Shown piece by piece: positions 15,318 to 39,448 of a stretch of 64,000 nucleotides of DNA. Location: positions 3,200 to 67,199 of the forward strand of contig CAVEIY010000001.1 in NCBI GenBank assembly GCA_963615825.1, given 5' to 3'. The first letter of the stretch is position 1. Each line of letters opens with the position of its first letter. This DNA is from Flexilinea sp. Its GTDB lineage: Bacteria > Bacillota > Clostridia > Oscillospirales > Oscillospiraceae. The notes under the pieces were generated by a model. It made no database searches. It saw only the letters and a list, made by a program, of their open reading frames with translations, and had not been told where the DNA came from. Made by a program: the position numbers and the translations under genes.

Positions 15318-15660
15318 GAGAAAAATGTTATTTTTTTCGTAATTGTCTTTATTACGGTAAATTGCACAAGTTGTCTGCGGATAGAGCGTATGGATCCGGC
15401 GGATTGCCTGGTATGTGAAAAGGACAAAAGGCCGGAACAGGTCTATTGCTAGAGGAATGGCCGCTTCCGGATTTAATGAATTGGAAATTCCTTGCGACAC
15501 CCTAAAAGAAAAGTAACTGGAAACAATGTATTTTAATACATTATTTGATGCCGTTTTGGTGCGTTTTGATATTGGACAATGCAAGCATTCAATCTTATAC
15601 TGTAAATACAGGAAACACATATCTGGTGCAGCCCAGGTGTGGATGAAAGGAGAAAACACC

Positions 15661-17421
15661 ATGAAAAAAATACTTGCGCTCCTCACGGCACTGACTTTGC
15701 TGTGCAGCCTGTTTTCTGGCTGTGGACAGGAAGCGGCATCTGCAACGACAAGCAGAGCATCGGCTTCGTCGATCCAGGCGGAACCGGACGAGGCCCCCGA
15801 GGTTGAGCAGCCCTCGGCCAAGGAAGTGATATCGGCGGAAAGCAGCGAGGCACTCCCGGATGAGGAAACCTACTCCAAGTATGGCATCGACTTTGCCACA
15901 AAGTCCGGAAATCCCACCGAGGCAGCGGACATCCCTGTGGAGCTTCCTGTGACCGAGGATGACATCACAGCGTCCCTGTACATGATTATGTCCCCTGCGG
16001 TGATCGGAAATATCAATCAGCTTGCCGACGAAAACATCGCGTGGAAAACCTTCTGTGAGAGAACGGGTCTGAAATTGGACATCCATCTTGTGCATCCTGG
16101 CAATAAGGCTACAGAGGTTGCACTGATGCTTGCGTCTCAGGAATACTATGACGTTATGCAGGATGTTATCTCGGACTATACAGGTGGCGGCGATCAGGCA
16201 ATTGAGGATGAGTTTGTATATGATTTGACCGACACCATGAGAGAATACGCACCCAATTTCTTTGCCAAGATTACCTACAGTATGGATACCTATAATAAAG
16301 TTTGCACCGAATCCGGCAAGCTTGTTGGTTTTTCCAGAATTTCCAATGATCTGCTTCCTGAGAATGGACTGGCGATTCGCTATGATTGGCTCAGAGACAT
16401 AGGCATGGAGCTTCCCACTACAGTGGATGCGCTGCATGATGTTTTAACGGCCTTCAAGGAACAGGAGCATACCAATGCGGCTATGTGGCTGAATGGTACT
16501 GGTGTGTTTGAAACGGAAACGATTCTGAATGCGTATTATGGTGACGGCTCGTTCTATGTGAATGACGATGGCGTCGTTGGTTACGGCCCCATTGAAGATA
16601 GTTTCAAGGATTATTTAAAGACAATGGAACAGTGGTACAGGGAAGGGCTAATTTACCCGGATTTCTACACCAATGCAGATGATCTCCGAATTGAGGATGT
16701 CTCCCTGGTGGCATCTCAGAATATCGGTCTTGTTTCCACTGAGATCAATAAGCTCCAGACACTTAATGAGGTGGTCGAAGGCTCAGAGTGGGGGGCGCTT
16801 GGAACGGTGGTTCGGAATGAAGGCGATATGCTTCACACTGGCGGTACCTTTGCATACTATGCAGAAATGGTGGACATGGCGATTACAACCGCCTGCACAG
16901 ATCCGGAAACGGTATGCGCGGCATTTGACTATCTGTATACGGAAGAAGGTGCTTTGCTTGCTAACTATGGCGTTGAGGATGTAACGTTTGAATTTGATGC
17001 AGCCGGTACGCCGCAGTTTTCTGAGATGATGACCAATGATCCCAGCTCTGACCTGAAAACCATGATTCTGCTGAACTGCCTGGATATTGGACCCTATGTA
17101 AAGGATGTCTACCGTACACAGTCGACGCTTACGGATGCGCAGATCAAGGCCTATGAGATTTGGAATGATACCAGCATCAATGACCAGGCGTGGGAGATGC
17201 CGGCTAAGGTTTCGCTGACGACAGATGAAAGTGTTAGATACAGCAATCTGTATGCGGAGTTCCATGCATACTACCTTGAGATGGTTGATCAGTTTATCAT
17301 TGGCGCAGTTGACATTGACACAGAATGGGAGAACTATGTGGATACCATGAACAGCCTTGGCGTTCAGGATTCCGTAGAGATTTACCAGGTGGCATATGAT
17401 CGGTATGCTGCTGGGAAATAA
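15661..17421 (+). CDS. Large extracellular solute-binding lipoprotein (family 1, LplA/LipO-like), orphan
   Basis: MKKILALLTALTLLCSLFSGCG lipobox. About 586 aa with an acidic/Ser-rich linker. Start moved to ATG 15661 behind AAAGGAG. No ABC permease or ATPase is adjacent. Confidence 0.75.
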   Translation: MKKILALLTALTLLCSLFSGCGQEAASATTSRASASSIQAEPDEAPEVEQPSAKEVISAESSEALPDEETYSKYGIDFATKSGNPTEAADIPVELPVTEDDITASLYMIMSPAVIGNINQLADENIAWKTFCERTGLKLDIHLVHPGNKATEVALMLASQEYYDVMQDVISDYTGGGDQAIEDEFVYDLTDTMREYAPNFFAKITYSMDTYNKVCTESGKLVGFSRISNDLLPENGLAIRYDWLRDIGMELPTTVDALHDVLTAFKEQEHTNAAMWLNGTGVFETETILNAYYGDGSFYVNDDGVVGYGPIEDSFKDYLKTMEQWYREGLIYPDFYTNADDLRIEDVSLVASQNIGLVSTEINKLQTLNEVVEGSEWGALGTVVRNEGDMLHTGGTFAYYAEMVDMAITTACTDPETVCAAFDYLYTEEGALLANYGVEDVTFEFDAAGTPQFSEMMTNDPSSDLKTMILLNCLDIGPYVKDVYRTQSTLTDAQIKAYEIWNDTSINDQAWEMPAKVSLTTDESVRYSNLYAEFHAYYLEMVDQFIIGAVDIDTEWENYVDTMNSLGVQDSVEIYQVAYDRYAAGK

Positions 17422-17471
17422 AAGTCCAATCGACAATATAATAAAATCCATATTAGAAAGGTGAATGAATT

Positions 17472-18308
17472 ATGGAAAATGTTACAATAGAGGAGCTGCA
17501 AAAGCAAATTGCCGCACTTCAGGACAAGCTTGACCGAGTGGATGATTACCGCAAGATTATGAACGTCTACTCGAAGTTCTGGCACTACTATGAAATGGGA
17601 AAGTATGAAGAGCGCTTTGACCTCATTGCGCATCATACGCCCGGTGTTACGGTGGAAATTGGCGCGCGGGGTGTATTTGAAGGCCGTGAGAGCGCACATC
17701 GGAGCTTGGTTGACACGGAACTCGGCTTTGAGCACAGCCATGCAGTGGGGATGAAGCGGCTGTTCCCTGATGTCGATTTTCCCAGTGAGCATGCCGGTAT
17801 GCTGGAGTCAACTCTGATCGGTTCTCCGATTATTGAAATAGCGGAGGATCGCAAAACGGCCCACGGTGTATTCATTGCGCTGCAGTCTGTAGCAAAAACC
17901 CACGATAATGATCCAAAGCCGCGTTCTATGTGGATTTGGTGGAAAACAGCAATTGACTTTGTAAACGAGGATGGAACCTGGAGAATCTGGCATTTCAACA
18001 ACAACCCCTATTATGCAACAGGCAGCACAGAGGACTGGGTGACCAATGCCGTCCATATGGCTGGACTGAGAATGCCCGATGATCCCGAGGACTATGTTCC
18101 CTCTGGCGGCCCCGGTGGCCCTACTCCGAAGAAGGATGCAGAAAAGGGCAATCAGACCGGCGGCCATAGTCACTACACCACTGCGGATCGTCCCACAACG
18201 AGCTTCTATCGCTCCTATCGGATTACCGCATTGCCGCTGGAAATCCCGCTACCCGAACCGTATAAGACCTTCGATGAAAGCTTCAGCTATGAGCCTGAAA
18301 AGTCCTGA
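17472..18308 (+). CDS. SnoaL_4/NTF2-like (BaiE-like fold) protein with Pro-rich C-terminal tail
   Basis: N-terminal helix EELQKQIAALQDKLDRVDDYRKIMNVYSKFWHYY, then a cone-fold body (...DGTWRIWHFNNNP). Paralog of 24157..24834. Confidence 0.55.
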   Translation: MENVTIEELQKQIAALQDKLDRVDDYRKIMNVYSKFWHYYEMGKYEERFDLIAHHTPGVTVEIGARGVFEGRESAHRSLVDTELGFEHSHAVGMKRLFPDVDFPSEHAGMLESTLIGSPIIEIAEDRKTAHGVFIALQSVAKTHDNDPKPRSMWIWWKTAIDFVNEDGTWRIWHFNNNPYYATGSTEDWVTNAVHMAGLRMPDDPEDYVPSGGPGGPTPKKDAEKGNQTGGHSHYTTADRPTTSFYRSYRITALPLEIPLPEPYKTFDESFSYEPEKS

Positions 18309-18390
18309 ATAAGAAATTTCGGGAGTGCCATAAGCGTTAGCGGCACTCCCGATTTTGTTCGGACACTTAATATGTAAGGAGAAAGGGAAT

Positions 18391-19743
18391 ATGACAAACG
18401 ACGCAAAACGAGAAACTGTAAAATTAGCAGATATGGAGCCGAAGTTTCGTGGGCGTGCGGTGGGAATCATTATTGTGCTATTAATTCTCATGTTTTTAAA
18501 CAGCAGCGCTGCTTCTGATTCTATTAACGTAATCACAAGCTATTTCCCAGAGACGTTTGGCTGGTCAGATACGCAGGTTGCGCTTCCGCAGACCATCGGA
18601 AGCCTGATCTCGATTCCGCTGTTGGCACTGGCGGCGGTCCTTTATCACAAGTTTTCCACCCTTCGGGTGCTGCGCGTTTCTTTTTTGATTCAGGGGATTT
18701 GTGTCATTCTGATTGGCGTTACTTGCGGTCATTATTGGGGATATGCGACGGCTGCAATCGTTGTACGTATGTGCTCCACGGTCAATCAGTTTGGTACATA
18801 TAAGCTCTGTACGGACTGGTTTAACTCCTGGCGCGGCCGGATACTTGGCATTGTAACCATTGCGGGTCCCATTAGTTCTGCGTCTACTGCCGGGGTGTTG
18901 ACCGCAGGCAATGCTGTGTTGGGATTTTCTACAACGTTTGTTGTGTTTGGAATTGTTGTGCTGGTTCTTTGCGTTGCCAGTACGTTTATCAGCAAATCCT
19001 ATCCTGAGGATTACGGTCTGGCGGTGGATGGTGTGGTTCGCACACCGGAGGAACTGGCTGCGCTGGACGGCGATGTGAACAGCCCCAGCATTTGGACCCT
19101 GAAGGCGATGATCCGCACCAAGGAATACTGGATTGTTACCTTTGCCATTGCGTTTTTTGCAATGGCGATGTCGGGAACCATGCAGATGTGGATCCGGATT
19201 ACGGTTATGGGAAAAGGGCTGGATATGGGACTTGCCATTGTGGCACTTTCCATCGGCTCGCTGCTGGGCATTCCGATTTCTATGATTTCCGGTGTAATCG
19301 ACGATAAATTCGGTACCAATAAGGCTGCCTTTTTTGTCTGGATGTTTATGATCGTACTGATGCTCTGTATGATTTTCATTACGCCTGCCTGTGCTTGGCT
19401 GGTCTATGTGGCTACTTTCTGCGTGGGCGCAGTGACGGGGTGCTTCCCGAACATCAACCCTTCTATTAAGGCGTATACCTTTGGCAGAAAAGCATTTGTG
19501 ACGGCCAATAGCGTTTCGGCAATGATTGAAAACCTGTTTATGAGTGGCGCGCTGATTTTCCTGTCGATTATCAGTGATTTGACAGGCTCCTTTACCCCCG
19601 CCTATGTCATCCATGTCATCATTACTGCAATCTTTGCTGTTCTGCTGTTGACCATCAAGCCCATGGCACCAGAGGTGATTGGCGTTGAAGCGGCAAAAGA
19701 AATTGTAAAGAGAGCGACAGAGCCTCGTCATAAAGGCAGCTAA
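18391..19743 (+). CDS. MFS transporter (oxalate/formate-antiporter-like subfamily)
   Basis: About 12 TM. Paralog of 22873..24114 (shared WRGR.LGI.TI motif). Start moved to ATG 18391 behind AAGGAGAAAGGG. Confidence 0.8.
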   Translation: MTNDAKRETVKLADMEPKFRGRAVGIIIVLLILMFLNSSAASDSINVITSYFPETFGWSDTQVALPQTIGSLISIPLLALAAVLYHKFSTLRVLRVSFLIQGICVILIGVTCGHYWGYATAAIVVRMCSTVNQFGTYKLCTDWFNSWRGRILGIVTIAGPISSASTAGVLTAGNAVLGFSTTFVVFGIVVLVLCVASTFISKSYPEDYGLAVDGVVRTPEELAALDGDVNSPSIWTLKAMIRTKEYWIVTFAIAFFAMAMSGTMQMWIRITVMGKGLDMGLAIVALSIGSLLGIPISMISGVIDDKFGTNKAAFFVWMFMIVLMLCMIFITPACAWLVYVATFCVGAVTGCFPNINPSIKAYTFGRKAFVTANSVSAMIENLFMSGALIFLSIISDLTGSFTPAYVIHVIITAIFAVLLLTIKPMAPEVIGVEAAKEIVKRATEPRHKGS

Positions 19744-19752
19744 TTTATCAAA

Positions 19753-19795
19753 AGCGCTGTGTATGGTAGTAAGTTACGATACACAGCGCTTTTCT
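19753..19795. terminator. Bidirectional terminator between the MFS and LysR genes
   Basis: AGCGCTGTGTAT-14 nt-ATACACAGCGCT, flanked by AAA and TTTT. Confidence 0.75.
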
Positions 19796-19798
19796 TGG

Positions 19799-20746
19799 TT
19801 AGATAGGGGGGTGATAATCCTCAGGGTGCATCACAGAGGAAAGGTCTTTACAATAATCCGTCAGAATGGATAAAAACAGATGATCCTGTTTTGATTGATA
19901 GCGATTTCGCAAGACCGCAATTCCAATGTCCATTTTTGCACAGGAGTCCGAAATAATGCGCATTTCGATGCCGGGGATCCTGGGATTATCCAAGCAGTTC
20001 TCCAGCTTGAGATGATTGACCAGATTGTGCTGGGAGATAAATCCGATTCCCACATTATTGCGGACCAGCTTGAAAATGAGAGAAGGATCACTTTCCTCAA
20101 ATACAATATTGGGGGAGGCGCCAACTGTGGAAAAACAGTCCTCCATCAGCGGACGGATGCCATAGCCGTGTGGGGTGCTGACAATCGGTTCGCCCACGAG
20201 CTGAGACAGGGAAAGCACTTCATATTTAGACAAGGGATGCTGCTCTGGAAGAAGTGCCAGAATGCTGTCGTTCAACAGGTGTGTCCACTGAATCCGATCA
20301 CTTTCAATCCGGTCTGCGGAAATGACATAGTCAACAATGCTGTCGTTCAGATATGCCATAGCCTGATTTCGCTGTAGAAAGAGCTGTGACAGCTTAAATT
20401 GATTTTGAAGGATCACATACCGGTCCAAGAAGAATGTCAGAATTCCCGGGATGGTAATTCCAACGTGAATGGTATGGGTTCCGTTGCCCTGAAGGTCCTG
20501 AATTTCCCGCTGGGCCTCCTCTAATTGCAGAAAAACCTGTTTTGCTCTCGCAAGAAAGACACGGCCAAAATCGTTGAGATAGATTTGACGTCCAATGCGA
20601 TCAAACAGCCGCACCCCTAAATCGCTTTCCAGCCGTGCAATGGTTCGACTGAGCGAGGACTGGGAGATAAACAGCTCTTCAGCGGCCTTTGTCATATTGC
20701 CGGATTCAGCAATCTTGATGAAGTAGCGCATTTGCAGAAGCTCCAT
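19799..20746 (-). CDS. LysR family transcriptional regulator
   Basis: MELLQMRYFIKIAESGNMTKAAEELFISQSSLSRTIARLE winged HTH plus a LysR substrate-binding domain. Start moved to ATG 20746 behind AGGAGGA. Divergent from the ene-reductase gene. Confidence 0.9.
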   Translation of the reverse strand: MELLQMRYFIKIAESGNMTKAAEELFISQSSLSRTIARLESDLGVRLFDRIGRQIYLNDFGRVFLARAKQVFLQLEEAQREIQDLQGNGTHTIHVGITIPGILTFFLDRYVILQNQFKLSQLFLQRNQAMAYLNDSIVDYVISADRIESDRIQWTHLLNDSILALLPEQHPLSKYEVLSLSQLVGEPIVSTPHGYGIRPLMEDCFSTVGASPNIVFEESDPSLIFKLVRNNVGIGFISQHNLVNHLKLENCLDNPRIPGIEMRIISDSCAKMDIGIAVLRNRYQSKQDHLFLSILTDYCKDLSSVMHPEDYHPPI

Positions 20747-20931
20747 ATTGCGTGTCCTCCTGAATACTGATTTCATTTATTATATCAAATGCGCTGAGAA
20801 AATCAATCAATTATCAGATGATTAATGCACTAAAATACATAACAAACATAAAAAACGGCACCCGGATATATTGGACTTATGGTAATTTTCAATTTATCAT
20901 AATGATAGAAAAGATAGATAGGAGGGGGAAA

Positions 20932-22860
20932 ATGAACCCATATCCACATTTGTTCTCTCCAATCCGTGTCGGACCGCTCCGGTTTAAAAACCGAATTATT
21001 GCAGCGCCGACACAGATTCGTCAGAAGGACTCAAACGGTCACATTAATGATTACGGAATTGCATATCAGGCCCGTAAAGCACGTGGTGGCGCTGCGCAGG
21101 TGACAATTGGAGATACGCCGGTTGAACCGCGTTATGGTGCAACACAATTTAACTCCTTTCAGCTGGATACCCCTGGTGCGCTGGCCTCCTTGTCGGAAGC
21201 GGCGGCAGCAATCCGGCAGTATGGAGCAATTCCCAGCCTTGAACTGAGCCATGGCGGAAAAATCGCAGTGCCGGCGTTTAATCATGGCAATGAGCCAATT
21301 GGCCCGATGGATGCGGTCAAGCCGGACGGGACAAAAATTCACGCAATGGATCAGACCATGATTGACTACATCGTGGGAAAATATGCAGAGGGTGCAAAAA
21401 CAATTCAGAAGTGCGGCTTTGAAATGTGTACTGTACATGCCGGTCACGGTTGGCTGCTGTCACAGTTCCTTTCACCACGATCTAATCAGCGGAAAGACCA
21501 GTATGGCGGCAGTCTGGAAAACCGAGCAAGACTCTGCGTGGAGGTAGTGGACGCAATTAAAGCAGCCTGTGGAAAGAATTTTGTAATTGAGCTTCGCATC
21601 AGTGGAGATGAATTTGTCGAGGATGGATTCCACCTGGAGGATATGATTGAATTTTGTAAAATGATTGAGACGAAGGTGGATATTTTGCATGTATCAGCCG
21701 GGCTCCACGGTGTCCCATCGGGTCTTATGCGGATGTTCCCGTCTAATTTGCTGCCCCATGGCTGCAATGTCTATCTGGCAGAGGCGATCAAAAAGAATGT
21801 CCATATTCCGGTGGCAACGGTGGGAGGAATTTCCTCCCCGGAAGAAGCCGAAGATATTATTGCTTCAGGGAAGGCAGACTTTGTAAGCCTTGCGCGCGCT
21901 CTGATTGCAGATCCCGATTTTCCAAACAAGGCACGGCATGGCATTCCGGTGCGTCCCTGCCTGCGCTGTCTCAACTGTCTGAAAAGCATGAACGATTGCA
22001 GGCATCTATCCTGTGCGGTAAACCCAACTGTAGGCAGCGAACATCGCCTTGGAAAGAAAGCGATGCCAACTGTGTCCAAGAAGTTGCTGGTCATTGGCGG
22101 AGGACCTGCGGGGATGAGCGCAGCCATAACTGCCCGGCAGCAGGGACATCAGGTAATTCTCTGCGAGAAAGCCGGAAGGCTGGGAGGACTACTGAACCAT
22201 GTGGATACGGATCCACGAAAGGACGATTTGAAGCAATATCGGGATTATCTTGTGGGCCAGACACAGGCCAGCGGTGCGGAGATTCAGCTGAATACCAATG
22301 TGACAAACGAGATGATTGCGTCGTTCCAGCCAGATGCAGTGATTTGCGCCATCGGATCGTCGCCCATTCTGCCGCCGATTCCGGGACTTGAAGCGTCCGG
22401 TGCCATTTCGGCAATGAGCGCGCATGAGAAAGACGCCGAACTTGGCGCACGTGTTGCGATAATCGGTGGCGGTCTTGTGGGCTGTGAAACTGCACTATAT
22501 CTTGCGGATTTGGGCCATACGGTTACTATTTTGGAGATGGCTCCTGCCATTGCGCAGGAGGATGCTCCGCTGCATCGAATGGCGTTGATGCAGGAGCTTG
22601 GAAGCCGTATTCAGATCTATACCGGACACCGCTGTACTGGAATTACAGAAGTCGGCGTACAGGCAGAAGCGGCGGATGGCACGATGGTGACGATTCCGGC
22701 GGATACGATTGTTTACGCGGCCGGAATGCGAGCGAAAACCGAAGAAACGGACACGCTTTATACCGCCGATATAGACTTTTACCCAGTGGGCGATTGCAAC
22801 CGCGCGAGAAAGATTCATGATGCGGTAACAGAAGGCTATTTTGCAGCGCTGGCGCTTTAG
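20932..22860 (+). CDS. NADH:flavin oxidoreductase, OYE-type TIM barrel + 4Fe-4S + FAD/NAD(P) domains (2,4-dienoyl-CoA reductase / enoate reductase / BaiCD-BaiH architecture)
   Basis: VHAGHGWLLSQFLSPRSNQRKDQYGGSLENRARL (OYE core). CLRCLNCLKSMNDCRHLSC (Fe-S Cys cluster). VIGGGPAGMSAA and IIGGGLVGCETA dinucleotide folds. Start at ATG 20932 behind AGGAGGGGG. Confidence 0.85.
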   Translation: MNPYPHLFSPIRVGPLRFKNRIIAAPTQIRQKDSNGHINDYGIAYQARKARGGAAQVTIGDTPVEPRYGATQFNSFQLDTPGALASLSEAAAAIRQYGAIPSLELSHGGKIAVPAFNHGNEPIGPMDAVKPDGTKIHAMDQTMIDYIVGKYAEGAKTIQKCGFEMCTVHAGHGWLLSQFLSPRSNQRKDQYGGSLENRARLCVEVVDAIKAACGKNFVIELRISGDEFVEDGFHLEDMIEFCKMIETKVDILHVSAGLHGVPSGLMRMFPSNLLPHGCNVYLAEAIKKNVHIPVATVGGISSPEEAEDIIASGKADFVSLARALIADPDFPNKARHGIPVRPCLRCLNCLKSMNDCRHLSCAVNPTVGSEHRLGKKAMPTVSKKLLVIGGGPAGMSAAITARQQGHQVILCEKAGRLGGLLNHVDTDPRKDDLKQYRDYLVGQTQASGAEIQLNTNVTNEMIASFQPDAVICAIGSSPILPPIPGLEASGAISAMSAHEKDAELGARVAIIGGGLVGCETALYLADLGHTVTILEMAPAIAQEDAPLHRMALMQELGSRIQIYTGHRCTGITEVGVQAEAADGTMVTIPADTIVYAAGMRAKTEETDTLYTADIDFYPVGDCNRARKIHDAVTEGYFAALAL

Positions 22861-22872
22861 GATGGCGATTTT

Positions 22873-24114
22873 ATGACAAAAACAAAGAATAAAAAATTTC
22901 TCATTCACGGAGCAGGAATCATATTTGTTTGTTTTTTCATGCAATATTTTTATTCCTGTTTACCCGGAGACAATCTGAATGTGCTGCAAACCTATCTGCC
23001 GGAGCTGCGAGGGTGGACAACCCTGCAAATTACAACCCCGGTTACCATTGGCGCGCTGCTGGCGGTACCGGGGACGCTGGTGTTTGGCACTGCCATTGTA
23101 AAGAAGGGGCCAAACTTTGTTATTATTCCATCCATCCTTTTGATGGCGATTTGCCAGGCAGCAATTGCGGTTTCTGATCGTCTGATTGTATATGCAATTG
23201 CCATGTGCCTGATTCGGCTGCTGATTCAGGTTGTAAGCCTTGGCATGACGACCTTGATTGCAAATTGGTTTGTAACCTGGCGCGGAAGAGCACTCGGAAT
23301 CATTACGATTGGATCACAGTTTAACACGGCCACATCTGTCGCACTGCTCACCAAAGGGTGTGATGCATTGGGCTTCCGTACCTCGTATTTGATCCTGAGC
23401 GGAGCAATTGCCGGCCTGGCGGTACTGACAATGCTCTTGTCCAGGGATAACCCACGTGCATTTGGACTGAATCCCGATGGTGCAGAGCAGGAGCAGTTCA
23501 CAACTGCGTCCCAGGTAAACTCGGAGGCAGTCTGGCCGCTGAAACGTATTTTTACATCCTGGGGTACATGGGTATTGATTATCAGCATGGGGTTTTTGAC
23601 CTTTATTATCAAAGCGGTAATGCCCAATTTCATGCCAAGAATGCTTGCTGTAGGCTTCCCGAAAGACTTGACGCTGATGCTCTTGACTTTTGCAACCGTA
23701 TGCGGCATGCCGCTTAGCTATCTGTTTGGCTGGATCAATGACCGATATGGTGCGCCAAAGGCTTGTATTACCCTGGGCATTGCCTATATCATGACAGTGC
23801 TGTCCTTCCGATTTGCACAGCCGGGGATGGAATGGCTGCTGTTCTTTGCTGTGCTCGGGATTGGCTGCATTACTGGCGGTACTGCCAGCCTGTATCCGGC
23901 ACTTGCCATGCACATTTATGGCCAAGCACATTTTGCACATGTCAACCGTTATGTGATGACGATTCAAAATATTATCGTTGCCTTTGCAGTTTCCTTTATG
24001 AGCGCAATTCAGACTGCTACAGGCTCCTTGAATGGTGCCTTTGATGTGCTGCTGATAATGGCTGTGCTTGCGACAGGACTGCTGTTTACCGTTCGGACCC
24101 AAAAGAACGTATGA
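22873..24114 (+). CDS. MFS transporter (paralog of 18391..19743)
   Basis: 413 aa, about 12 TM. 12 nt downstream of the reductase stop. Confidence 0.8.
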   Translation: MTKTKNKKFLIHGAGIIFVCFFMQYFYSCLPGDNLNVLQTYLPELRGWTTLQITTPVTIGALLAVPGTLVFGTAIVKKGPNFVIIPSILLMAICQAAIAVSDRLIVYAIAMCLIRLLIQVVSLGMTTLIANWFVTWRGRALGIITIGSQFNTATSVALLTKGCDALGFRTSYLILSGAIAGLAVLTMLLSRDNPRAFGLNPDGAEQEQFTTASQVNSEAVWPLKRIFTSWGTWVLIISMGFLTFIIKAVMPNFMPRMLAVGFPKDLTLMLLTFATVCGMPLSYLFGWINDRYGAPKACITLGIAYIMTVLSFRFAQPGMEWLLFFAVLGIGCITGGTASLYPALAMHIYGQAHFAHVNRYVMTIQNIIVAFAVSFMSAIQTATGSLNGAFDVLLIMAVLATGLLFTVRTQKNV

Positions 24115-24156
24115 TCGCCGGGGCCTTGTCCACCGGACAGAAAAGGAGAGATACAG

Positions 24157-24834
24157 ATGTCAGTGTTAACTGCAGAACAAAGACTTGCCAGGGTAGAGGC
24201 TTATATTGCGATTTCCAACGTCATGGGGAAATATGTATTCCATCGCATGAATGAAAATCTACCGGCGGTAACGGCGCTTTTTTCCCACCGGGATGACCTG
24301 CGGGTTGAAATGCCGTCGGGGACCTATACCGGCCCGAATGCGGCCTATCGCTGCTTCGAGGTGGACCATGCTGTGGATCTCAGCGCTGACCCGGCGCTTG
24401 TGATCCATGACGTCAATACACCGGTGATTGAGGTTGCTGCGGATTGTAAAACAGCCAGGGGCGTGTGGATTTCTCCCGGCCTGGCTACGGCGTCTATGCC
24501 CACAGGGAAAAAGGGGCTATGGGCCTGGGTGAAATATGATTGTGACTTCTTTCTGGAAGAGGACGGCTGGAAGATATGGCATATGCGCAAGTATGAGGTA
24601 TTTACGGTGCCGACAGATAAATCGTGGGTGGATGAGGACCCGATGGGAATGATGGTGCCGTCAAAATCGGATAATGGCACGGCTGCACCTCCCCCGCCGA
24701 AGCCCTTGCGCAGCAATGACCTGCCTGCTGGCATCAGTACAAAATATAATCCGAAAAAACGCGTTCCTGCCATTCCCGTCCCCCCGGAGCCATTTGAAAC
24801 CTGGCCTGAGCGCACACAGGAGGGAAACGAATGA
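24157..24834 (+). CDS. SnoaL_4/NTF2-like (BaiE-like fold) protein with Pro-rich C-terminal tail
   Basis: RLARVEAYIAISNVMGKYVFH...EEDGWKIWHMRKY. Tail is AAPPPPKPL...PVPPEPFETWPE. ATGA overlap with the next gene. Confidence 0.55.
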   Translation: MSVLTAEQRLARVEAYIAISNVMGKYVFHRMNENLPAVTALFSHRDDLRVEMPSGTYTGPNAAYRCFEVDHAVDLSADPALVIHDVNTPVIEVAADCKTARGVWISPGLATASMPTGKKGLWAWVKYDCDFFLEEDGWKIWHMRKYEVFTVPTDKSWVDEDPMGMMVPSKSDNGTAAPPPPKPLRSNDLPAGISTKYNPKKRVPAIPVPPEPFETWPERTQEGNE

Positions 24835-26582
24835 AGGTTTTTAAAGTTGTGGAAACCGAATGGGTTCTGGAAGATACCACAGAGCTGTTTGGACTTGTGA
24901 TTCGCGAAAATGCAAAGCTCTCTGCTCCACCGGGGAAGCAGCTTACTATGACGCTCAACGGCGAAAATGTGCCAATTGTACCTGGCACCTATGAGGGCGA
25001 TATTGTGCTCTCGGTTACGGATGATATTCCGATTCACGCTGTCTGCGATGCGGTTTTCCGCAGTGCCCTATACGTCGAGGACGGAAAGGTTGTGCCGGAG
25101 AAATCGGTTCTTGCGGCAGTGACTGGTGGAACAGTGGCAGATGGTGAGGCGATGGGCATTGCGATTACTAGCAGCGAAGAGAATTTTAACGGTGTTATTG
25201 TTGCAGGCGATGGCGAATATACCATTCAAAATGCTGAAATCCATTTCCATGGGAACGGAAGCAATGATTTTATTGGCCAGGGTGCAGGAATTATGACCAC
25301 TGGGGCAGGAAAGCTCACCATCAATCGTTCGCACCTAACAACGCATGGCGCAGCTCGCGGTACAATATTTAGCGGTGAACACGGAACGCTTGTTGTAAAC
25401 GACTGCGTGATTGAAGGAAAGCCCGGGGTGCTGCCGCCAGACTATGTGGACAGTATCGAGCCTGGTGGAATGCGCTGTGTGCCCTGGATGTTGGGCCTAC
25501 GGGGAAACTGCCGTGCCACCAATTTGGCGGATTATACCACAGCCTATTTTAATCGCTGTAAATGCACCTCAGAGAGCTGGGGCGTTATGTCTACAGACGG
25601 TGTCAGCCAGGTCCGTTCCTACATAAAGGACTGCGATATTCGTATTACCGGAAATAGCGGATATGGTGCATTTGCGCTGCTGGATACGGTTGTGACACTG
25701 GATCACTCCATGATTACAGTCCCGGACTATGGTATGGTCAGTTCCATGGCAAACGCTACCTTTGTGGTCAAAAATGGCACGGTTGTCCAGGCGGGACGGT
25801 TCGGCGGTATGAGCTATCGTTTGGTAGATGGCCTGTTTGATATTCAGCCGGGTTGTGAGATACATGCCGGAGAGACTGCGTTCCTGACAAAGGGCTGCCC
25901 CTGTACCTATCAGATTGAAGATGCGGTGGTTGAATCCGGGAGAAAGATTTTGCTTCAGATGATGGATACGGATGATCCCTTTAATCCAGCGGGATCCTAC
26001 TCTGATCCCGTTGACAATGAGCAGCCGATTGAAGGACGGGATCTTACAAAGACGGTTCGCAGTGAGGATTGTTTTGTGATTCTGAAGAATACAGAGATTG
26101 AGGGCAGCATTTACAACGCAACCAGTGACTTGAAGTTTGAGTTTATTCCGCTGAAGCCGCTGCCCGGAGAACCCGGCGGTCCTCCCATTGAGCCGCTGCC
26201 TGATGGAACCATTCCCAAATTCTCCAGAATGATGGGAAATGGTCCGATGAATTTGTCTGTCTCGCTGCAGGGCTCGACGCTAACCGGCAGCATTACCTCT
26301 GCTAAAGCCACCCATCGAGTTCCGAAGATTGATAAGACCAACTGCGAAGAACTAGGCGAGGTCAACAATACCCCGCGGCCTGCGATCAATAACGGCGTTG
26401 TGGTGGAATTGGACGGCACTTCTACCTGGACGATTGATGGCACCAACTATTTAAATAAGCTGATCCTTGCGGAAGGTGCCAAGGTTCTTCGGCGCGATGG
26501 CAGCGTGCCGTCGATGACCGTAAACGGCAACCCCGCTGAGTTTGCTGCGGGAAGCTATGTTGGCAGAATTATAATCGCCTAG
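24831..26582 (+). CDS. Hypothetical 583-aa cytoplasmic protein, predicted beta-helix-like repeats (paralog A)
   Basis: No signal peptide or TM. Repeated G-x-G..[IV].N..[IV] units (NGVIVAGDGEYTIQNAEIHFHGNGSNDFIGQGAGIMTTGAGKLTINRSHLTTHG...). I recognise no motif. Translationally coupled to the SnoaL gene. Confidence 0.7.
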   Translation: MKVFKVVETEWVLEDTTELFGLVIRENAKLSAPPGKQLTMTLNGENVPIVPGTYEGDIVLSVTDDIPIHAVCDAVFRSALYVEDGKVVPEKSVLAAVTGGTVADGEAMGIAITSSEENFNGVIVAGDGEYTIQNAEIHFHGNGSNDFIGQGAGIMTTGAGKLTINRSHLTTHGAARGTIFSGEHGTLVVNDCVIEGKPGVLPPDYVDSIEPGGMRCVPWMLGLRGNCRATNLADYTTAYFNRCKCTSESWGVMSTDGVSQVRSYIKDCDIRITGNSGYGAFALLDTVVTLDHSMITVPDYGMVSSMANATFVVKNGTVVQAGRFGGMSYRLVDGLFDIQPGCEIHAGETAFLTKGCPCTYQIEDAVVESGRKILLQMMDTDDPFNPAGSYSDPVDNEQPIEGRDLTKTVRSEDCFVILKNTEIEGSIYNATSDLKFEFIPLKPLPGEPGGPPIEPLPDGTIPKFSRMMGNGPMNLSVSLQGSTLTGSITSAKATHRVPKIDKTNCEELGEVNNTPRPAINNGVVVELDGTSTWTIDGTNYLNKLILAEGAKVLRRDGSVPSMTVNGNPAEFAAGSYVGRIIIA

Positions 26583-26599
26583 GAGAACATTTTATTCCG

Positions 26600-28399
26600 T
26601 TGCCGACGGGGAAGCCAATGGGTTCCCTGTCGGCTGGGAAACCGGCTGAGAAAGGATGCATATACTTGCAGAAATTCCGAGTGATTGAGCAGACCGTTGT
26701 AATTGAAGAAACAACCAGATTGTTTGGATTAAAGCTTGCCCCCGGAGCGGAACTTAAAGCGCCTGACGGAAAGCTTCTTACCATGACCTATAACGGAATA
26801 CAGGTAAACCCGATACCTGGCACCTATGAAGGTGATATTGTGCTCACCGTAACAGAGCCGATTCGGGTGGGAACGATGGCGCAGTCCGACCTTAGAACAG
26901 CCATCTGTATTGGAGAGAATGGACTGGTGCCCGAAAAGTCGGTTCAGGCTGCGGTGCTTTGTGGAACCGTTAGAGAACGAGAGATTTCCAATTTAAAAGT
27001 ATCGAGTCAGGGAGACTGCTTCTCTGCGCTCTACATTGATTCTGCGCAGGATTATGTGATAAATGATGCAGTGATCGAGTGTATCGGAAATGGAGAGAAT
27101 GAATCGGTGGGCGAAGGCGCAGGAATCATTACGGCGGGAACCGGAAAGATCACTATGAATCGGTCTGCAATTACAGTCCGAGGAGCAGCACGAAGTGCTT
27201 TGTTTGGCGGTGGTCATAGCCGGTTGGAAGTGAATGATTCAACCATATATACGTCCGGCGGTGTGTTACCCTACGATTATCAGGATTCCATTGCAGCAGG
27301 AAAAATGAAACGAGTCCCATGGATGCTGGGACTTCGGGGCAATAGTCGTGCAACGAACCTGGCGGAATGCGCAGAAGCGGTGTATAATCGCTGCACCATT
27401 ACGGCCGCAGAGTGGGGAGCCATGTCTACAGATGGTGTGGAGCGTTGTAGACTGTACTTGAAGGATTGCGATATTCGAGTCACTGGCCCCAGCGGCTATG
27501 GCACATTTGCCCTGTTGGATACGGTCAATACCATAGATCACTGCCGGGTGAATGTTCCGGATTATGCGGCGATTGTGGCAAATGGACCGGCCAGTACGGT
27601 AATTACCGGAGGATCTGACGTCCATGCAGGACGATTTGGGGTAATGTGCTTCCGCAATTCTGGAATTGTGATGGTAAACGGAGACAGCCAAATGGAATCG
27701 GGCGAGGCAACCTTTGTGGTAAAAGGCTGTTCGACCCGATTCGAGGTGGAGAATGCTGTATTGAAGCCGGGAAATGGAACGATCCTTCAGGTAATGGATA
27801 CCGATGACCCGAGAAACCCCCAAAAGTACTTTGTGGATAATGATGAGCCGGATAAAAAGAATCCGGAGCGCGATTTGACAGCCGCAGATGAGGAGGCGGT
27901 CCGCGCCATATTCCGGAATATGACCCTGGTGGGCAACTTCTTTAACGGAACGACCAATCGCAAGTATGATACCGGGCCGGAGTTGGGCGATCCGCATGGA
28001 CCAGGAGGCCATGGTGGGCCAGGTATGCCGCCTCCACCTAAACCGGATGAGAAGCCGGCGGAGCAGGCGAAAAATATGCAGATTACGCTGAGCAAGGTTC
28101 AGTTGACTGGCATGATTTCTGCGACTACAGTTCGGCATATCGTGAAAAAAATTTCAAAGGAGAACTGTGAAGAACTGGGAAGGATAATCAATATCCCAGC
28201 AATGGCGGTGAATAATGGCGTTATTGCAGTATTGCAGAATCAGTCGGTTTGGACTCCGCAAGGCACCAGTTATCTTACAAAACTGAGCGTGGATGAAAGC
28301 AGCTCCATCGAACATGCAGCTATGACAGTAGATGGGATTCCCACTAAACTGGAACCCGGGAGCAGCTATGTTGGAAGCATTATCATTACTGCGGTTTAA
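26600..28399 (+). CDS. Hypothetical ~580-599-aa protein, paralog B of 24831..26582
   Basis: Shares blocks with paralog A (PGTYEGDIVL.VT, VPWMLGLRGN.RATNL, WG.MSTDG, KDCDIR.TG.SGYG.FALLDTV, MDTDDP.NP, NCEELG). Start is uncertain: TTG 26600, ATG 26618 or TTG 26666. Alignment with paralog A favours 26666. Confidence 0.7.
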   Translation: MPTGKPMGSLSAGKPAEKGCIYLQKFRVIEQTVVIEETTRLFGLKLAPGAELKAPDGKLLTMTYNGIQVNPIPGTYEGDIVLTVTEPIRVGTMAQSDLRTAICIGENGLVPEKSVQAAVLCGTVREREISNLKVSSQGDCFSALYIDSAQDYVINDAVIECIGNGENESVGEGAGIITAGTGKITMNRSAITVRGAARSALFGGGHSRLEVNDSTIYTSGGVLPYDYQDSIAAGKMKRVPWMLGLRGNSRATNLAECAEAVYNRCTITAAEWGAMSTDGVERCRLYLKDCDIRVTGPSGYGTFALLDTVNTIDHCRVNVPDYAAIVANGPASTVITGGSDVHAGRFGVMCFRNSGIVMVNGDSQMESGEATFVVKGCSTRFEVENAVLKPGNGTILQVMDTDDPRNPQKYFVDNDEPDKKNPERDLTAADEEAVRAIFRNMTLVGNFFNGTTNRKYDTGPELGDPHGPGGHGGPGMPPPPKPDEKPAEQAKNMQITLSKVQLTGMISATTVRHIVKKISKENCEELGRIINIPAMAVNNGVIAVLQNQSVWTPQGTSYLTKLSVDESSSIEHAAMTVDGIPTKLEPGSSYVGSIIITAV

Positions 28400-28578
28400 A
28401 CGTGTTAGCCGACATCGGGAGCGTGAGCGTTGCTGTTATAGCTGAGATCTGGAATATATTTGCGGCGCTATATGATTTGAAATAATCCCCTAGGAAGATT
28501 GACACGGGAATCTGGACATCGCAAGTACAATCGAATGAGGTGCTCGTTAAAATTGGGCGCTGCCCTGTAATAAAATTA

Positions 28579-28610
28579 CCGCTGATTTCATAAGAAATCA
28601 GCGGCTTTTG
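28579..28610 (+). terminator. Intrinsic terminator ending the catabolic island operon
   Basis: CCGCTGATTTC-ataa-GAAATCAGCGG followed by CTTTTG. A near-identical copy lies at 48433-48464. Confidence 0.7.
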
Positions 28611-28961
28611 CATTGCGTTTTCCGCCACGCTTGCCGTGGGGGAAAACGCATGAAATATAAAATTTGAGCGGTTTTAGCAACCATGTTTTAGTATGCTTAT
28701 AAGTATGGTAACTGCCGGAAGTGTGCAAAGTTTTGCACAGCGTAGGGCGGGCTTGCATTTGCGTTATTTTCTAACACAGTGAACTTCCGCCACTGGTATG
28801 CCACATGTCTGAGAACCAATCAGTTTTGTACATGCCTTTTTCTTGTATTTTTTGAGTGCTGTTCATTATGGTTGAAACATCCATGTTGATCACAGTAAAT
28901 GGGGTATCAATGACTTTTTTCATTCGCCTCAATTTAATCTGCTCAAACTTAATGGAGCCTC

Positions 28962-29795
28962 TTACTTTAGACTTCTAACAAAAATCGAAATTTTTCTTTT
29001 AAACGAGTTATCATATGCTAGACTTTTGCTATAAAACCTTTTGTAGCTCTCATTTCCTGCTTTTTTTAGTTCATTGCCGGCATCCTGTAACGCACTAGCC
29101 ATAACATGCATCATTTTAGGATATTTTTTTTGAAAAGACGGATGCTTCTGTAAAATTAAATCGCAGGCTTTATAGAGCTTTTCAGGATTACTACTTATAG
29201 AATCATTGCCAATTTTATAATCAACCAGCCCGTCATCAAGACAGTAAATTCGATACTTTTCTGCAATTCTGACTAGCATTTCAAACTCCTGAAAGCGTGG
29301 CATCGAAATATCAAATGGGCATTTTTCAAATACTTCTTTTTTTGCTAATAGGCTTTGTGTCCCTATTCCAAACAAGTTTTCGACGGGATTCAAAAACCCC
29401 TCACCTATTGAATCCGGTAACAATTGAGTTTTTCCATTCGCATAATATTTGACAAGTTTACAAAAAACAAGATCTGCGCCTGATATTTCCATCGCTTTTA
29501 TCTGTTTTTCTAATTTGTCTTGATGCCAAATATCATCACTATCATGAAAGGCCACCAGTTCTCCATGGGAAAGCGCAACACCTTTATTTCGTGCTACACA
29601 AGCGCCCGCATTTTCTTGATAGAAATATTTTAGCCTTGAATCTTGAATAGACTGAACAACTCGGGATGTTTCGTCGGTAGATCCGTCATCAACCACGATA
29701 ACTTCAATATCTGTGTATGTTTGACACAAAACACTATTAATCGCCTCTTTAATCACATTTTCTCGGTTATAAGCTGGTATCACGACTGAAACCAA
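28962..29795 (-). CDS. Glycosyltransferase family 2
   Basis: VSVVIPAYNRENVIKEAINSVLCQTYTDIEVIVVDDGSTD...FHDSDD (DxD). TTG start behind GAGGTGA. Last gene of the EPS locus. Confidence 0.85.
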   Translation of the reverse strand: MVSVVIPAYNRENVIKEAINSVLCQTYTDIEVIVVDDGSTDETSRVVQSIQDSRLKYFYQENAGACVARNKGVALSHGELVAFHDSDDIWHQDKLEKQIKAMEISGADLVFCKLVKYYANGKTQLLPDSIGEGFLNPVENLFGIGTQSLLAKKEVFEKCPFDISMPRFQEFEMLVRIAEKYRIYCLDDGLVDYKIGNDSISSNPEKLYKACDLILQKHPSFQKKYPKMMHVMASALQDAGNELKKAGNESYKRFYSKSLAYDNSFKRKISIFVRSLK

Positions 29796-29801
29796 AGATA
29801 G

Positions 29802-31334: not shown

Positions 31335-31339
31335 GTTCT

Positions 31340-32335: not shown

Positions 32336-32339
32336 AATC

Positions 32340-33542: not shown

Positions 33543-33640
33543 AAAATAGCGTTCTCTTTCTTAAATTTTTATCCCTGCACGAATTACATAAATACAATAG
33601 TTGTCCTGTGCATGTTCAGATCATTGGTTAAAGTCAATCA

Positions 33641-38304: not shown

Positions 38305-38315
38305 GTTTTCGCCCT

Positions 38316-39431: not shown

Positions 39432-39448
39432 AATAGTCCCCAATCTTT

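Follow-up and report, generated by a model that had tools for sequence, protein, structure and literature searches.

Two leaderless, predicted right-handed beta-helix proteins encoded beside an LdpA homolog and a flavin reductase in an Oscillospiraceae operon

Two adjacent genes, BH-A and BH-B (A and B below), close an operon in a 64,000-nucleotide stretch of contig CAVEIY010000001.1 of Flexilinea sp. (Oscillospiraceae); we refer to this whole stretch as the window. The operon also encodes a reductase of the old yellow enzyme (OYE) type, a major facilitator superfamily (MFS) transporter and a SnoaL-like protein. We found that A and B belong to a large family, that A is predicted to fold as one long beta-helix, that the SnoaL-like neighbour is a homolog of the lignin-dimer enzyme LdpA, and that the genes of the family recur beside flavin-dependent redox enzymes in several phyla. 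These observations lead us to propose, at a probability of roughly 40%, that A and B represent a new family of cofactor-independent hydrolases or lyases that deconjugate or open plant phenylpropanoid-type substrates, the substrate class being suggested by association. The fold is a known one, but in the resources and literature that we searched there is no description of the family, of its leaderless branch or of the link to LdpA-like and flavin redox genes. The two genes are:

24831..26582, plus strand: BH-A, an open reading frame (ORF) of 583 amino acids (aa); leaderless protein of an uncharacterised family, predicted right-handed beta-helix
26600..28399, plus strand: BH-B, paralog of A; 599 aa as listed, from the start TTG 26600

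Results

A and B are full-length paralogs without an export signal

The two proteins were aligned end to end by BLASTP with 44% identity (256/586; E = 2e-157), which bears out the paralogy suggested by an earlier description of this DNA made from the letters alone (the sequence-only reading). The six sequence blocks quoted there are each found in both proteins, at corresponding positions (first residue given):

PGTYEGDIVL.VT: A 51, B 73
VPWMLGLRGN.RATNL: A 217, B 239
WG.MSTDG: A 250, B 272
KDCDIR.TG.SGYG.FALLDTV: A 266, B 288
MDTDDP.NP: A 378, B 399
NCEELG: A 504, B 522

A tblastn search found no third copy of A or B in the 64-kb window. The 631-aa ORF at 15526, considered as a third paralog, is unrelated to A and is the solute-binding protein (SBP)-like lipoprotein described below. 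No transmembrane segment was detected in A or B, for which the highest Kyte-Doolittle means over 19 residues were 1.38 and 1.28, respectively, and inspection of the two sequences revealed no hydrophobic N-terminus, sorting motif or beta-barrel translocator; hydropathy and inspection thus agree with the earlier statement that both proteins lack a signal peptide and transmembrane segments.

The 5' end of A cannot be extended, as 24831 is the first start codon past an in-frame stop. This gene's ATG shares nucleotides with the stop codon of the SnoaL_4 gene at 24157..24834 (ATGA, GAATGAAGG), so the proposed translational coupling has its overlap in the sequence, and a GGAGGG lies 6 nucleotides (nt) upstream. 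For B, the plus strand offers TTG 26600 (599 aa), ATG 26618 (593 aa) and TTG 26666 (577 aa), and the start is probably one of the latter two rather than the listed TTG 26600. The NCBI-type model of B (P0038) begins with MGSLS, which corresponds to ATG 26618. TTG 26666 is the only candidate that aligns with Met1 of A (tblastn), and the orthologs P0033 and P0048 begin with MQKFRVI and MKEFRVIE, matching this position.

A is predicted to form a single beta-helix and falls in no known family

An AlphaFold2 (AF2) model of A, built with a 70-sequence alignment of the family, was obtained with a predicted local distance difference test score (pLDDT) of 93.8 and a predicted TM-score (pTM) of 0.91. In the model, about 50 short strands with a period of 20-25 residues extend over residues 4-582 as one unbroken right-handed parallel beta-helix, with long loops at 198-227 and 379-413 and a disordered Pro/Gly loop at 444-467 (444-454 and 462-467). 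Foldseek returned nearly only beta-helix proteins, and together with the AF2 model this supports the fold that had been suspected from the periodicity of the sequence. The sequence-only reading had also divided the proteins into a Pro/Gly-rich linker and a C-terminal domain; both Pro/Gly stretches are present, but the model shows a disordered loop inside one helix rather than a boundary between domains. Residues 3-62 of A (24831-25020) resemble residues 527-582 (26390-26579), and this cross-match between the two ends recurs between A and distant homologs, as if one module of about 55-60 residues capped both ends of the helix in the proteins of the family.

All matches of the A model in the PDB with E < 0.01 were beta-helix proteins, the best having E = 2.9e-4 with TM-scores of 0.25/0.32, and TM-scores overall ranged from about 0.16 to 0.41. 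The Foldseek matches included the fucoidan lyase FdlA, pertactin, Ag43-type passengers, PL6 alginate lyases, GH28, GH87 and GH110 enzymes, and tailspike depolymerases. Matches in BFVD were almost all beta-helix proteins of the tailspike or depolymerase type.

Sequence profiles were less informative. The Pfam model Beta_helix (PF13229) scored 17.0 bits with A and 16.0 bits with B, both under its gathering cut-off of 25.9. When 70 members of the family were scanned at E <= 0.1 it was the sole recurrent match (40/70; best E = 5.7e-9), and no GH28, pectate-lyase, pectinesterase, chondroitinase or other carbohydrate-enzyme model of Pfam was matched by any of them. NCBIfam yielded nothing for A, and its one match for B was negligible, with 13.4 bits (E = 0.026) where the cut-off is 487; neither phmmer nor the 70-sequence profile found a significant match among the solved structures of the PDB (best E = 0.13). 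The catalytic signature of GH28 enzymes consists of NTD, DD, GHG and RIK motifs. By eye, STDG (254-257) and SGYG (276-279) of A loosely resemble NTDG and GHG, but there is no DD coil between them and no RIK. Pfam, NCBIfam, PDB and Foldseek searches therefore gave no placement in a known lyase or adhesin family, and the earlier description of the pair as proteins without a recognisable family stands. Nor did we find a description of this beta-helix family in the literature searched, which included a review of lignin-dimer catabolism.

The family is large and has both leaderless and exported members

A word-indexed search returned 191 relatives; those with a name at the source are all called 'hypothetical protein' save one with a DUF1307 lipoprotein label. 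An exhaustive profile search retrieved 1,489, 1,052 and 589 clusters (at 50% identity) at E <= 1e-3, 1e-10 and 1e-30, respectively, and the species genomes of GTDB contained 284 family loci, often with several copies per genome. The close relatives of A all come from gut and rumen metagenome-assembled genomes (MAGs) labelled Oscillospiraceae or 'Clostridiales', their metagenome sources being Hadza, ruminant and human gut, and they start straight at the first coil; one ortholog with 87% identity to A (P0001) is present on 37 contigs. More distant members (31-38% identity) occur in Novosphingobium, Steroidobacteraceae, Pseudoxanthomonas, Burkholderiales, Acidobacteriota, Actinomycetota, Desulfobacterales and free-living Clostridium, and most of these have a signal peptide or a lipobox. 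Taxonomic labels of MAGs may err: the contigs at loci L009 (labelled Bacteroidaceae bacterium) and L025 (Barnesiella intestinihominis) carry genes and synteny of Oscillospiraceae type (cf. L002 and L023) and are probably mis-binned.

Among 256 sampled members, a hydrophobic N-terminal segment was found in 113, whereas 143 have none and start at the domain. The absence of a leader from the pair had been regarded as unexpected; A and B do lack an export signal, but with more than half of the sample in the same state they are not exceptional. Signal-peptide, lipoprotein and S-layer homology (SLH)-anchored forms also exist in the family, though none in the Oscillospiraceae clade. The long members have SLH domains in 10 of 34 cases, Ig-like domains also occur, and several consist of two fused family units (for example P0121, 1125 aa, and P0127, 1246 aa). 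At about one quarter of the loci two family genes lie close together, and an adjacent pair of a short (~480 aa) and a long (~570 aa) form recurs in Novosphingobium and others. A divergent short paralog (~480-530 aa) was seen near the long form at L041, L045, L048, L054, L055, L057, L069, L071 and L079, often directly 3' of a TonB-dependent receptor gene; the one at L057 keeps the motifs GxGxNDF, WGxLSTD, GYG and DDP.

The SnoaL-like neighbour is a homolog of LdpA

The gene to which A is coupled is the following:

24157..24834, plus strand: LdpA-family NTF2/SnoaL_4 protein, 225 aa, with a C-terminal arm (Pfam SnoaL_4, E = 8.9e-11)

LdpA is a cofactor-less NTF2-fold trimer that converts erythro-1,2-diguaiacylpropane-1,3-diol (erythro-DGPD), a lignin beta-1 dimer, into lignostilbene and formaldehyde via a quinone methide; its catalytic set comprises Tyr35, Asp40, His97, Glu143 and Tyr147, and the tyrosines hold the phenolate of the substrate (PMC9942872). 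With beta-5 dimers, the corresponding step is carried out by PcfL, a homolog of LdpA (PMC11323797).

Together with 30 relatives, the 225-aa protein makes up a small subfamily. When a profile of this subfamily was run against the PDB, LdpA was the sole significant match (8abv/8abt; E = 2e-16), with structures from Sphingobium SYK-6 and Novosphingobium aromaticivorans. With an AF2 model of the protein (pLDDT 79), the top seven Foldseek matches were all LdpA (8abv/8abt/8abu; E = 6e-10, query TM-score (TMq) 0.58-0.66, up to 221 aligned columns), and in some of these the aligned part is almost the entire protein and reaches into the C-terminal tail. Lower ranks were taken by LinA, scytalone-dehydratase-like proteins and BaiE. 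In the HMMER alignment, Tyr35, His97 and Tyr147 of LdpA are kept as Y26, H84 and Y127. The label 'SnoaL-like' was correct in that the protein has a SnoaL_4 domain, but it is more exactly a homolog of the LdpA family, and because of this the likely chemistry of the operon shifts from steroids or bile acids towards phenolic dimers.

Members of the same subfamily lie near family genes elsewhere. In Oscillospiraceae they were found twice in the window and at L001, L005, L008, L036 and L058; in Proteobacteria they lie 1-4 genes from the family gene at L047 (two copies), L057, L060, L066 and L084. This pairing of a beta-helix gene with an LdpA-like gene, across two phyla and across the divide between cytoplasmic and periplasmic forms, is the strongest functional clue that we have.

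A Pro-rich composition is common to the C-terminal tail of the LdpA-like protein (24640-24834; AAPPPPKPLRSNDLP... PEPFETWPE) and the disordered loops of A (26150-26250, PLPGEPGGPPIEPLP) and B (27960-28040, GPGMPPPPKPDEKP), which share a PPPPKP-type element; this may be plain low complexity or a common interaction motif.

Redox and transport genes are the recurrent neighbours of the family

We scanned 87 loci, of which 86 had a family gene, the 80 retained loci being those closest to the query. Genes were called with an ORF scorer based on log-odds of amino-acid composition, which reproduces the gene map of the window. For a Pfam census we took the genes within two positions of a family member, excluding TonB receptors in the exported group; this gave 211 proteins, 101 in the Oscillospiraceae group and 110 in the exported group. 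In the former, Pyr_redox_2 (7), FAD_binding_2 (6), SBP_bac_1 (5), LysR (4), Fer4 (4), Oxidored_FMN (3), short-chain dehydrogenase/reductase (SDR; 3), SnoaL_4 (3) and ROK (3) were recorded. The exported group had MFS (11), SDR (8), FAD_binding_3 (7), Glyoxalase/VOC (6), FAD_binding_2 (5) and LysR (5), and LacI as well; the FAD_binding_3 proteins are monooxygenases of aromatic type. Among the 25 families listed for each group there was no glycoside hydrolase, polysaccharide lyase, carbohydrate esterase or other esterase, sugar-kinase or sugar-permease family; genes of a carbohydrate kind were confined to the LacI and ROK regulators and the SBP-like or TonB uptake proteins.

SBP-like genes are the commonest immediate neighbours of the Oscillospiraceae members, and a typical layout there has an SBP-like lipoprotein gene followed by the beta-helix gene, with genes for an OYE-type reductase, an FAD_binding_2 protein and SnoaL proteins nearby. 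The best model for the neighbouring FAD_binding_2 protein is vinyl-phenol reductase, with a score under the cut-off. In Proteobacteria the typical order is LacI, MFS, SDR, TonB receptor, short beta-helix gene and long beta-helix gene, accompanied by FAD monooxygenase and VOC genes. A plasmid of Novosphingobium sp. ES2-1, as annotated by PGAP, illustrates this arrangement with LacI, TonB receptors, two 'hypothetical' family genes, FAD monooxygenases, VOC, SDR and NTF2 genes. OYE-type reductases were found at 14 of the 86 loci, including loci in Oscillospiraceae, Clostridium puniceum, Treponema, Acidobacteriota and Burkholderiales. With OYE-type reductases recurring beside the family in several phyla and the SnoaL subfamily at 12 loci in two phyla, the company that A and B keep in the window is not peculiar to it.

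At L059, L065, L067 and L073 (Acidobacteriota, Asticcacaulis and Novosphingobium) a 510-550-aa protein with a twin-arginine signal adjoins the family members; it has no match in Pfam or NCBIfam.

Conserved residues may line one face of the helix

D146, R228, W250, D256, Y278 and D381 (numbering of A) are invariant in the family, and R176, N226, N231, S254, S276, D299, K354, D382 and N429 are conserved in at least 90% of members. The core of this set is retained in multidomain members, and the main motifs are kept in the short paralog that we examined (L057). When the alignment was compared with the DSSP assignment, the conserved polar residues fell at equivalent points of successive coils, after the second or third strand. 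We infer from this that they line one face of the helix, as would fit a functional groove.

The operon belongs to a 12-kb cluster that is kept in relatives

The remaining features of the region are:

15526..17421, plus strand: SBP_bac_1-like lipoprotein, about 587 aa, heading the 12-kb cluster; lipobox MKKILALLTALTLLCSLFSGC, real start at about 15658
17472..18308, plus strand: second LdpA-like SnoaL_4 paralog, 278 aa (SnoaL_4, E = 3.4e-10)
18355..19743, plus strand: second MFS transporter, 462 aa as listed (MFS_1, E = 4.4e-25)
19799..20776, minus strand: divergent LysR-type regulator (Pfam HTH_1 and LysR_substrate)
20818..22860, plus strand: two-domain OYE/FMN and FAD/NAD(P) iron-sulphur (Fe-S) flavoenzyme (Oxidored_FMN, E = 2.7e-56; Pyr_redox_2, E = 8e-32)
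22873..24114, plus strand: MFS transporter, 413 aa (Pfam MFS_1, E = 3.3e-20), kept in the syntenic clusters
28579..28604, both strands: terminator-like hairpin with an 11-12-bp stem, 6 GC pairs and T-rich tails on both strands

The genes from the reductase to B lie on the same strand, with gaps of 12 nt (OYE to MFS), 42 nt (MFS to SnoaL), -4 nt (SnoaL to A) and 17-83 nt (A to B, by the start of B), and the hairpin follows B. The tight packing and the hairpin agree with the single transcription unit that the sequence-only reading had drawn for A, B, the OYE-type reductase, the MFS transporter and the SnoaL gene. The OYE gene probably starts at ATG 20932 rather than at 20818; its orthologs have 639-641 aa. 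The 155-nt gap between the LysR and OYE genes has promoter-like sites in both directions, at 20806-20779 on the minus strand (10/12 matches) and at 20872-20900 on the plus strand, the latter just 5' of ATG 20932. The best NCBIfam match of the OYE protein was the BaiCD model (449.7 bits, under the equivalog cut-off of 825), and its nearest solved structures are the 2-naphthoyl-CoA reductase 6qkg and the 2,4-dienoyl-CoA reductase (DCR) 1ps9; by sequence, it is assigned to the class of 2,4-dienoyl-CoA reductase, enoate reductase and BaiCD. It carries a Cys-rich stretch, CLRCLNC...C...C, that we take to be the site of an Fe-S cluster. The two SnoaL_4 paralogs (278 and 225 aa) share 25% identity over the full length of the shorter copy (E = 4e-19).

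The 12-kb array SBP-SnoaL-MFS-LysR-OYE-MFS-SnoaL-A-B is wholly syntenic in a relative with 87% identity that occurs on many gut-metagenome contigs. In L001 and L008 the cluster is rearranged, with the B ortholog at the opposite end and on the opposite strand, and the same SBP-like gene is the first of the cluster in L001, L008 and L087-90. Since this synteny extends to the rearranged clusters, the A, B, reductase, SnoaL and transporter genes travel together. In the SBP-SnoaL-MFS module at 15526-19743, no gene for an ABC permease or ATPase adjoins the SBP-like gene; an orphan SBP-like gene paired with MFS and/or OYE genes was also seen in L001, L005, L008, L036, L058 and L087-90. An SBP acting together with an MFS transporter would be unusual.

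The GC content, about 0.51 up to about 28.4 kb, is 0.34-0.40 beyond it. The relative with 87% identity has an integrase/relaxase element 3' of B, where the window has a presumed polysaccharide locus; the cluster therefore borders a variable region. On the minus strand, about 28400-40000 holds a 277-aa ORF, large multi-pass membrane proteins (520 and 400 aa) and further ORFs; it resembles a surface-polysaccharide locus and was probably acquired laterally. Many long antisense shadow ORFs (up to 388 aa) lie over the real genes at 17600-28200, on both strands.

Discussion

A proposed early step in the use of plant phenolics

These loci join an uptake device (a TonB receptor or an SBP-like lipoprotein, with an MFS transporter) and the beta-helix protein, predicted to be periplasmic in diderms and cytoplasmic in this monoderm clade, to enzymes of kinds common in phenolic or aromatic metabolism. 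The beta-helix protein is the constant element, whereas its redox neighbours differ, being oxidative in aerobes (FAD monooxygenase, VOC) and reductive in anaerobes (OYE-type Fe-S flavoenzyme, vinyl-phenol-reductase-like flavoprotein); the LdpA-like protein accompanies both. For this reason the simplest reading is that A and B act early and without redox chemistry, deconjugating, trimming or opening a plant phenolic. They would be acid/base enzymes, and their catalytic apparatus would be a long groove lined by D146, R228, W250, D256, Y278 and D381, together with the near-invariant D299, K354 and D382, and because the conserved groove is long, an oligomeric or conjugated ligand would suit it. 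Candidate substrates are conjugates of lignans, neolignans, stilbenoids or flavonoids, and small lignin-derived oligomers. In the Flexilinea operon, the compound would be imported by the SBP-like lipoprotein and the MFS transporters, and processed in the cytoplasm by A and B, which might work as a pair or each on a related substrate. The product would then be transformed and reduced by the LdpA-like protein and the OYE-type Fe-S flavoenzyme, the reduction probably serving as an electron sink, and the divergent LysR protein would regulate the operon. The exported homologs of diderm aerobes would act in the periplasm, between the TonB-dependent receptor and the MFS importer, with FAD monooxygenases and VOC dioxygenase-like proteins standing in for the reductases.

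A more specific version goes further. The family may be a case of a beta-helix enzyme with a substrate other than a polysaccharide, one that cleaves a plant phenylpropanoid oligomer or conjugate (a lignin-derived oligomer, a lignan or neolignan, or a polyphenol) without a cofactor and feeds LdpA-type quinone-methide chemistry. The gut operon would then be the anaerobic, reductive counterpart of the sphingomonad lignin-dimer pathways, running from the beta-helix enzyme through an LdpA-like lyase to an ene-reductase as electron sink. We hold this version to be unlikely in its entirety and put it forward as a speculation.

Several points weigh against a phenolic substrate or against the way in which it was derived. 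The great majority of beta-helix superfamily members act on carbohydrates. A sugar moiety is also hinted at near some members of our family, by LacI and ROK regulators, a gluconolactonase-like gene and glucose-dehydrogenase-like SDRs. In the LdpA-like protein, which is only about 20% identical to LdpA, Asp40 and Glu143 are replaced by M31 and A123; given these replacements, the product of 24157-24834 probably binds a phenol, as a homolog of LdpA, but catalyses a different reaction. Linkage to such an operon is not universal, because many Oscillospiraceae members adjoin unrelated genes (TrkA/TrkH, a cold-shock gene, peptidases); one abundant ortholog group is a stand-alone gene 3' of a cold-shock gene, and another lies 3' of trkA/trkH. 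D146 and D381 would be about 40 A apart, so not all of the conserved residues can be catalytic, and some may be structural or bind Ca2+. The placement of residues in the groove comes from sequence periodicity and the DSSP string rather than from coordinates, and ORF calling and single-linkage clustering were home-made. Finally, a random-barcode transposon sequencing (RB-TnSeq) screen in Novosphingobium rhizosphaerae LY gave no pinoresinol-specific phenotype outside eight chromosomal genes, which means that the family gene on plasmid pLY1 (L061) is not needed for this lignan. The pinoresinol pathway was accordingly set aside as a candidate, the pin genes being chromosomal and the screen having left the pLY1 locus unflagged.

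Alternative explanations

The first of these points opens onto the main alternative, in which A and B act on imported oligosaccharides as lyases (of polysaccharides or oligosaccharides) or glycoside hydrolases of a family not yet classified, with the aromatic or redox neighbours incidental or downstream of a sugar. Uronate-containing substrates are possible, and their unsaturated products could feed the enoate reductase or a KduD-like SDR. Nearly every structural neighbour of A is a glycan-cleaving beta-helix enzyme, a conserved Asp/Arg/Lys/Tyr line is typical of the grooves of such enzymes, and many members are exported, lipoproteins or SLH-anchored, like extracellular depolymerases. The neighbours can also be read in the style of a polysaccharide utilisation locus (PUL): TonB receptor, LacI, ROK, SBP-like lipoprotein, a KduD/glucose-1-dehydrogenase-like SDR and a gluconolactonase-like gene. 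On the other hand, Pfam models linked to CAZy matched 0 of 70 members at E = 0.1, TM-scores to the solved enzymes are low (0.16-0.41), and the GH28 motifs, compared by eye, are not all there. No family of carbohydrate-active enzymes (CAZymes), esterases, sugar kinases or sugar ABC permeases was among the 25 listed per group for the 211 neighbours. We therefore consider a purely carbohydrate role unlikely. The more specific idea of a uronate lyase within a PUL, which had arisen from the TonB, LacI and SDR neighbours, was demoted on the same census, where no CAZyme or sugar-catabolic family was listed. A glycoside with a phenolic aglycone as substrate would reconcile the carbohydrate and phenolic readings.

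Could the pair instead be non-catalytic, binding or scaffolding the reductase and the LdpA-like enzymes in a heteromer? Beta-helix accessory proteins that serve other enzymes exist, as in NosD and SufB/SufD. No catalytic motif or cofactor site can be recognised in the pair, A is translationally coupled to the LdpA-like gene, paralog pairs and fused double-unit proteins recur in the family, and the module of about 55 residues at both helix ends could mediate end-to-end contacts. But D146, R228, D256, Y278 and D381 are kept across phyla in exported and cytoplasmic members alike, many loci have no fixed partner, and periplasmic or surface forms cannot scaffold cytoplasmic reductases. This makes an accessory role rather improbable.

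We are still more doubtful of a bai-like pathway for steroids, bile acids or other terpenoids in which A and B would be accessory, acting on steroid conjugates. It would account for BaiCD as the best NCBIfam match of the OYE protein (449.7 bits), for the BaiE structures at ranks 15, 23, 34 and 36 among the Foldseek matches of the SnoaL protein, for the relatives in Steroidobacteraceae and estrogen-degrading Novosphingobium, and for a layout of MFS, OYE and NTF2 genes that resembles part of the bai operon. Yet the BaiCD score is far under its cut-off of 825, and the SnoaL profile that matches LdpA at E = 2e-16 matches no BaiE chain at E <= 10. The cluster is without BaiB, BaiA, a BaiF-type CoA ligase, a hydroxysteroid dehydrogenase or a CoA transferase, and the aerobic relatives have FAD_binding_3 and VOC genes rather than genes of KshA/HsaC type (the HsaC model reaches 32 bits, its cut-off being 450).

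We regard it as very improbable that A and B serve as adhesins on the cell surface or are secreted by an unrecognised route: pertactin and Ag43-type autotransporter passengers are among the weak Foldseek matches and some members are SLH-anchored or lipoproteins, but A and B have no signal peptide, transmembrane segment, sorting motif or translocator, their C-terminus is a helix cap like the N-terminus, they start at the first coil as do all members of their clade, and A is coupled to a gene for a cytoplasmic-type enzyme in a catabolic operon.

If the proposal of a phenylpropanoid hydrolase or lyase is correct, at least about 1,500 clusters that now have no family name, Pfam or NCBIfam model or structure would acquire a function, and the beta-helix, a fold known almost only for glycan cleavage, would be extended to the catabolism of aromatic and phenolic compounds. 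The proposal would also point to a first step in the bacterial uptake and opening of plant phenolic dimers, oligomers and conjugates, with a bearing on lignin valorisation in soil and on the fate of dietary lignans and polyphenols in the gut on fibre-rich diets. Were A and B to prove CAZymes instead, their family would still be new, and its cytoplasmic branch and redox partners would be unusual.

Comparison with known systems

Pectate-lyase-like enzymes (PL1, PL6, PL9, GH28, FdlA and tailspikes) resemble A and B in consisting of one long beta-helix of about 500-600 residues, and resemble the family in the conserved acidic, basic and aromatic line on one face and in the export of many members. 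They differ from A and B in that there is no significant sequence or profile similarity and TM-scores stay at 0.16-0.41, and from the family in that half of our sample is leaderless and the neighbours are genes of redox or aromatic type and transporters, not CAZymes. GH91, the difructose-anhydride hydrolase and inulin fructotransferase family, sets a precedent in that its right-handed beta-helix enzymes work on a small molecule taken up by the cell instead of a polymer outside it; A and B have no detectable similarity to it, and GH91 is not among the 50 Foldseek matches listed.

The bai operon (BaiCD/BaiH, BaiE and BaiG) shares with the window an OYE-type Fe-S flavoenzyme, an NTF2-fold enzyme and an MFS transporter in a gut Clostridium-type anaerobe. 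The window differs in the sub-threshold BaiCD score, in an NTF2 protein that is nearer to LdpA than to BaiE and in having no genes of BaiA, BaiB or BaiF type. The bai operon is not known to include beta-helix proteins.

By gene type, the neighbours of the family are divided as are clusters for (iso)flavonoids: OYE, FAD_binding_2 and SDR in anaerobes, and FAD_binding_3, VOC/glyoxalase and SDR in aerobes. The equol-type cluster of gut bacteria combines an OYE-like reductase, an SDR and a fumarate-reductase-like flavoprotein. In soil, fde/ifc clusters have an FAD monooxygenase and a glyoxalase-type dioxygenase, and the passages of the ifc preprint consulted make no mention of a beta-helix protein (10.1101/2023.08.07.552369).

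A further parallel is the step in which sphingomonads process lignin dimers with LdpA or PcfL. The pathway papers on lignin dimers that we consulted, PMC9942872 and PMC11323797 among them, likewise make no mention of beta-helix proteins. Both SnoaL_4 genes of the window encode homologs of LdpA and PcfL, with the NTF2 core and the long C-terminal tail, and the family loci share with these systems the combination of uptake genes, SDR and redox enzymes and an NTF2 lyase. The window differs in having no lignostilbene dioxygenase and, in its place, an OYE reductase of anaerobe type; the operon is a concrete, clonable candidate for an anaerobic route that would run parallel to the aerobic LdpA/lignostilbene-dioxygenase pathways.

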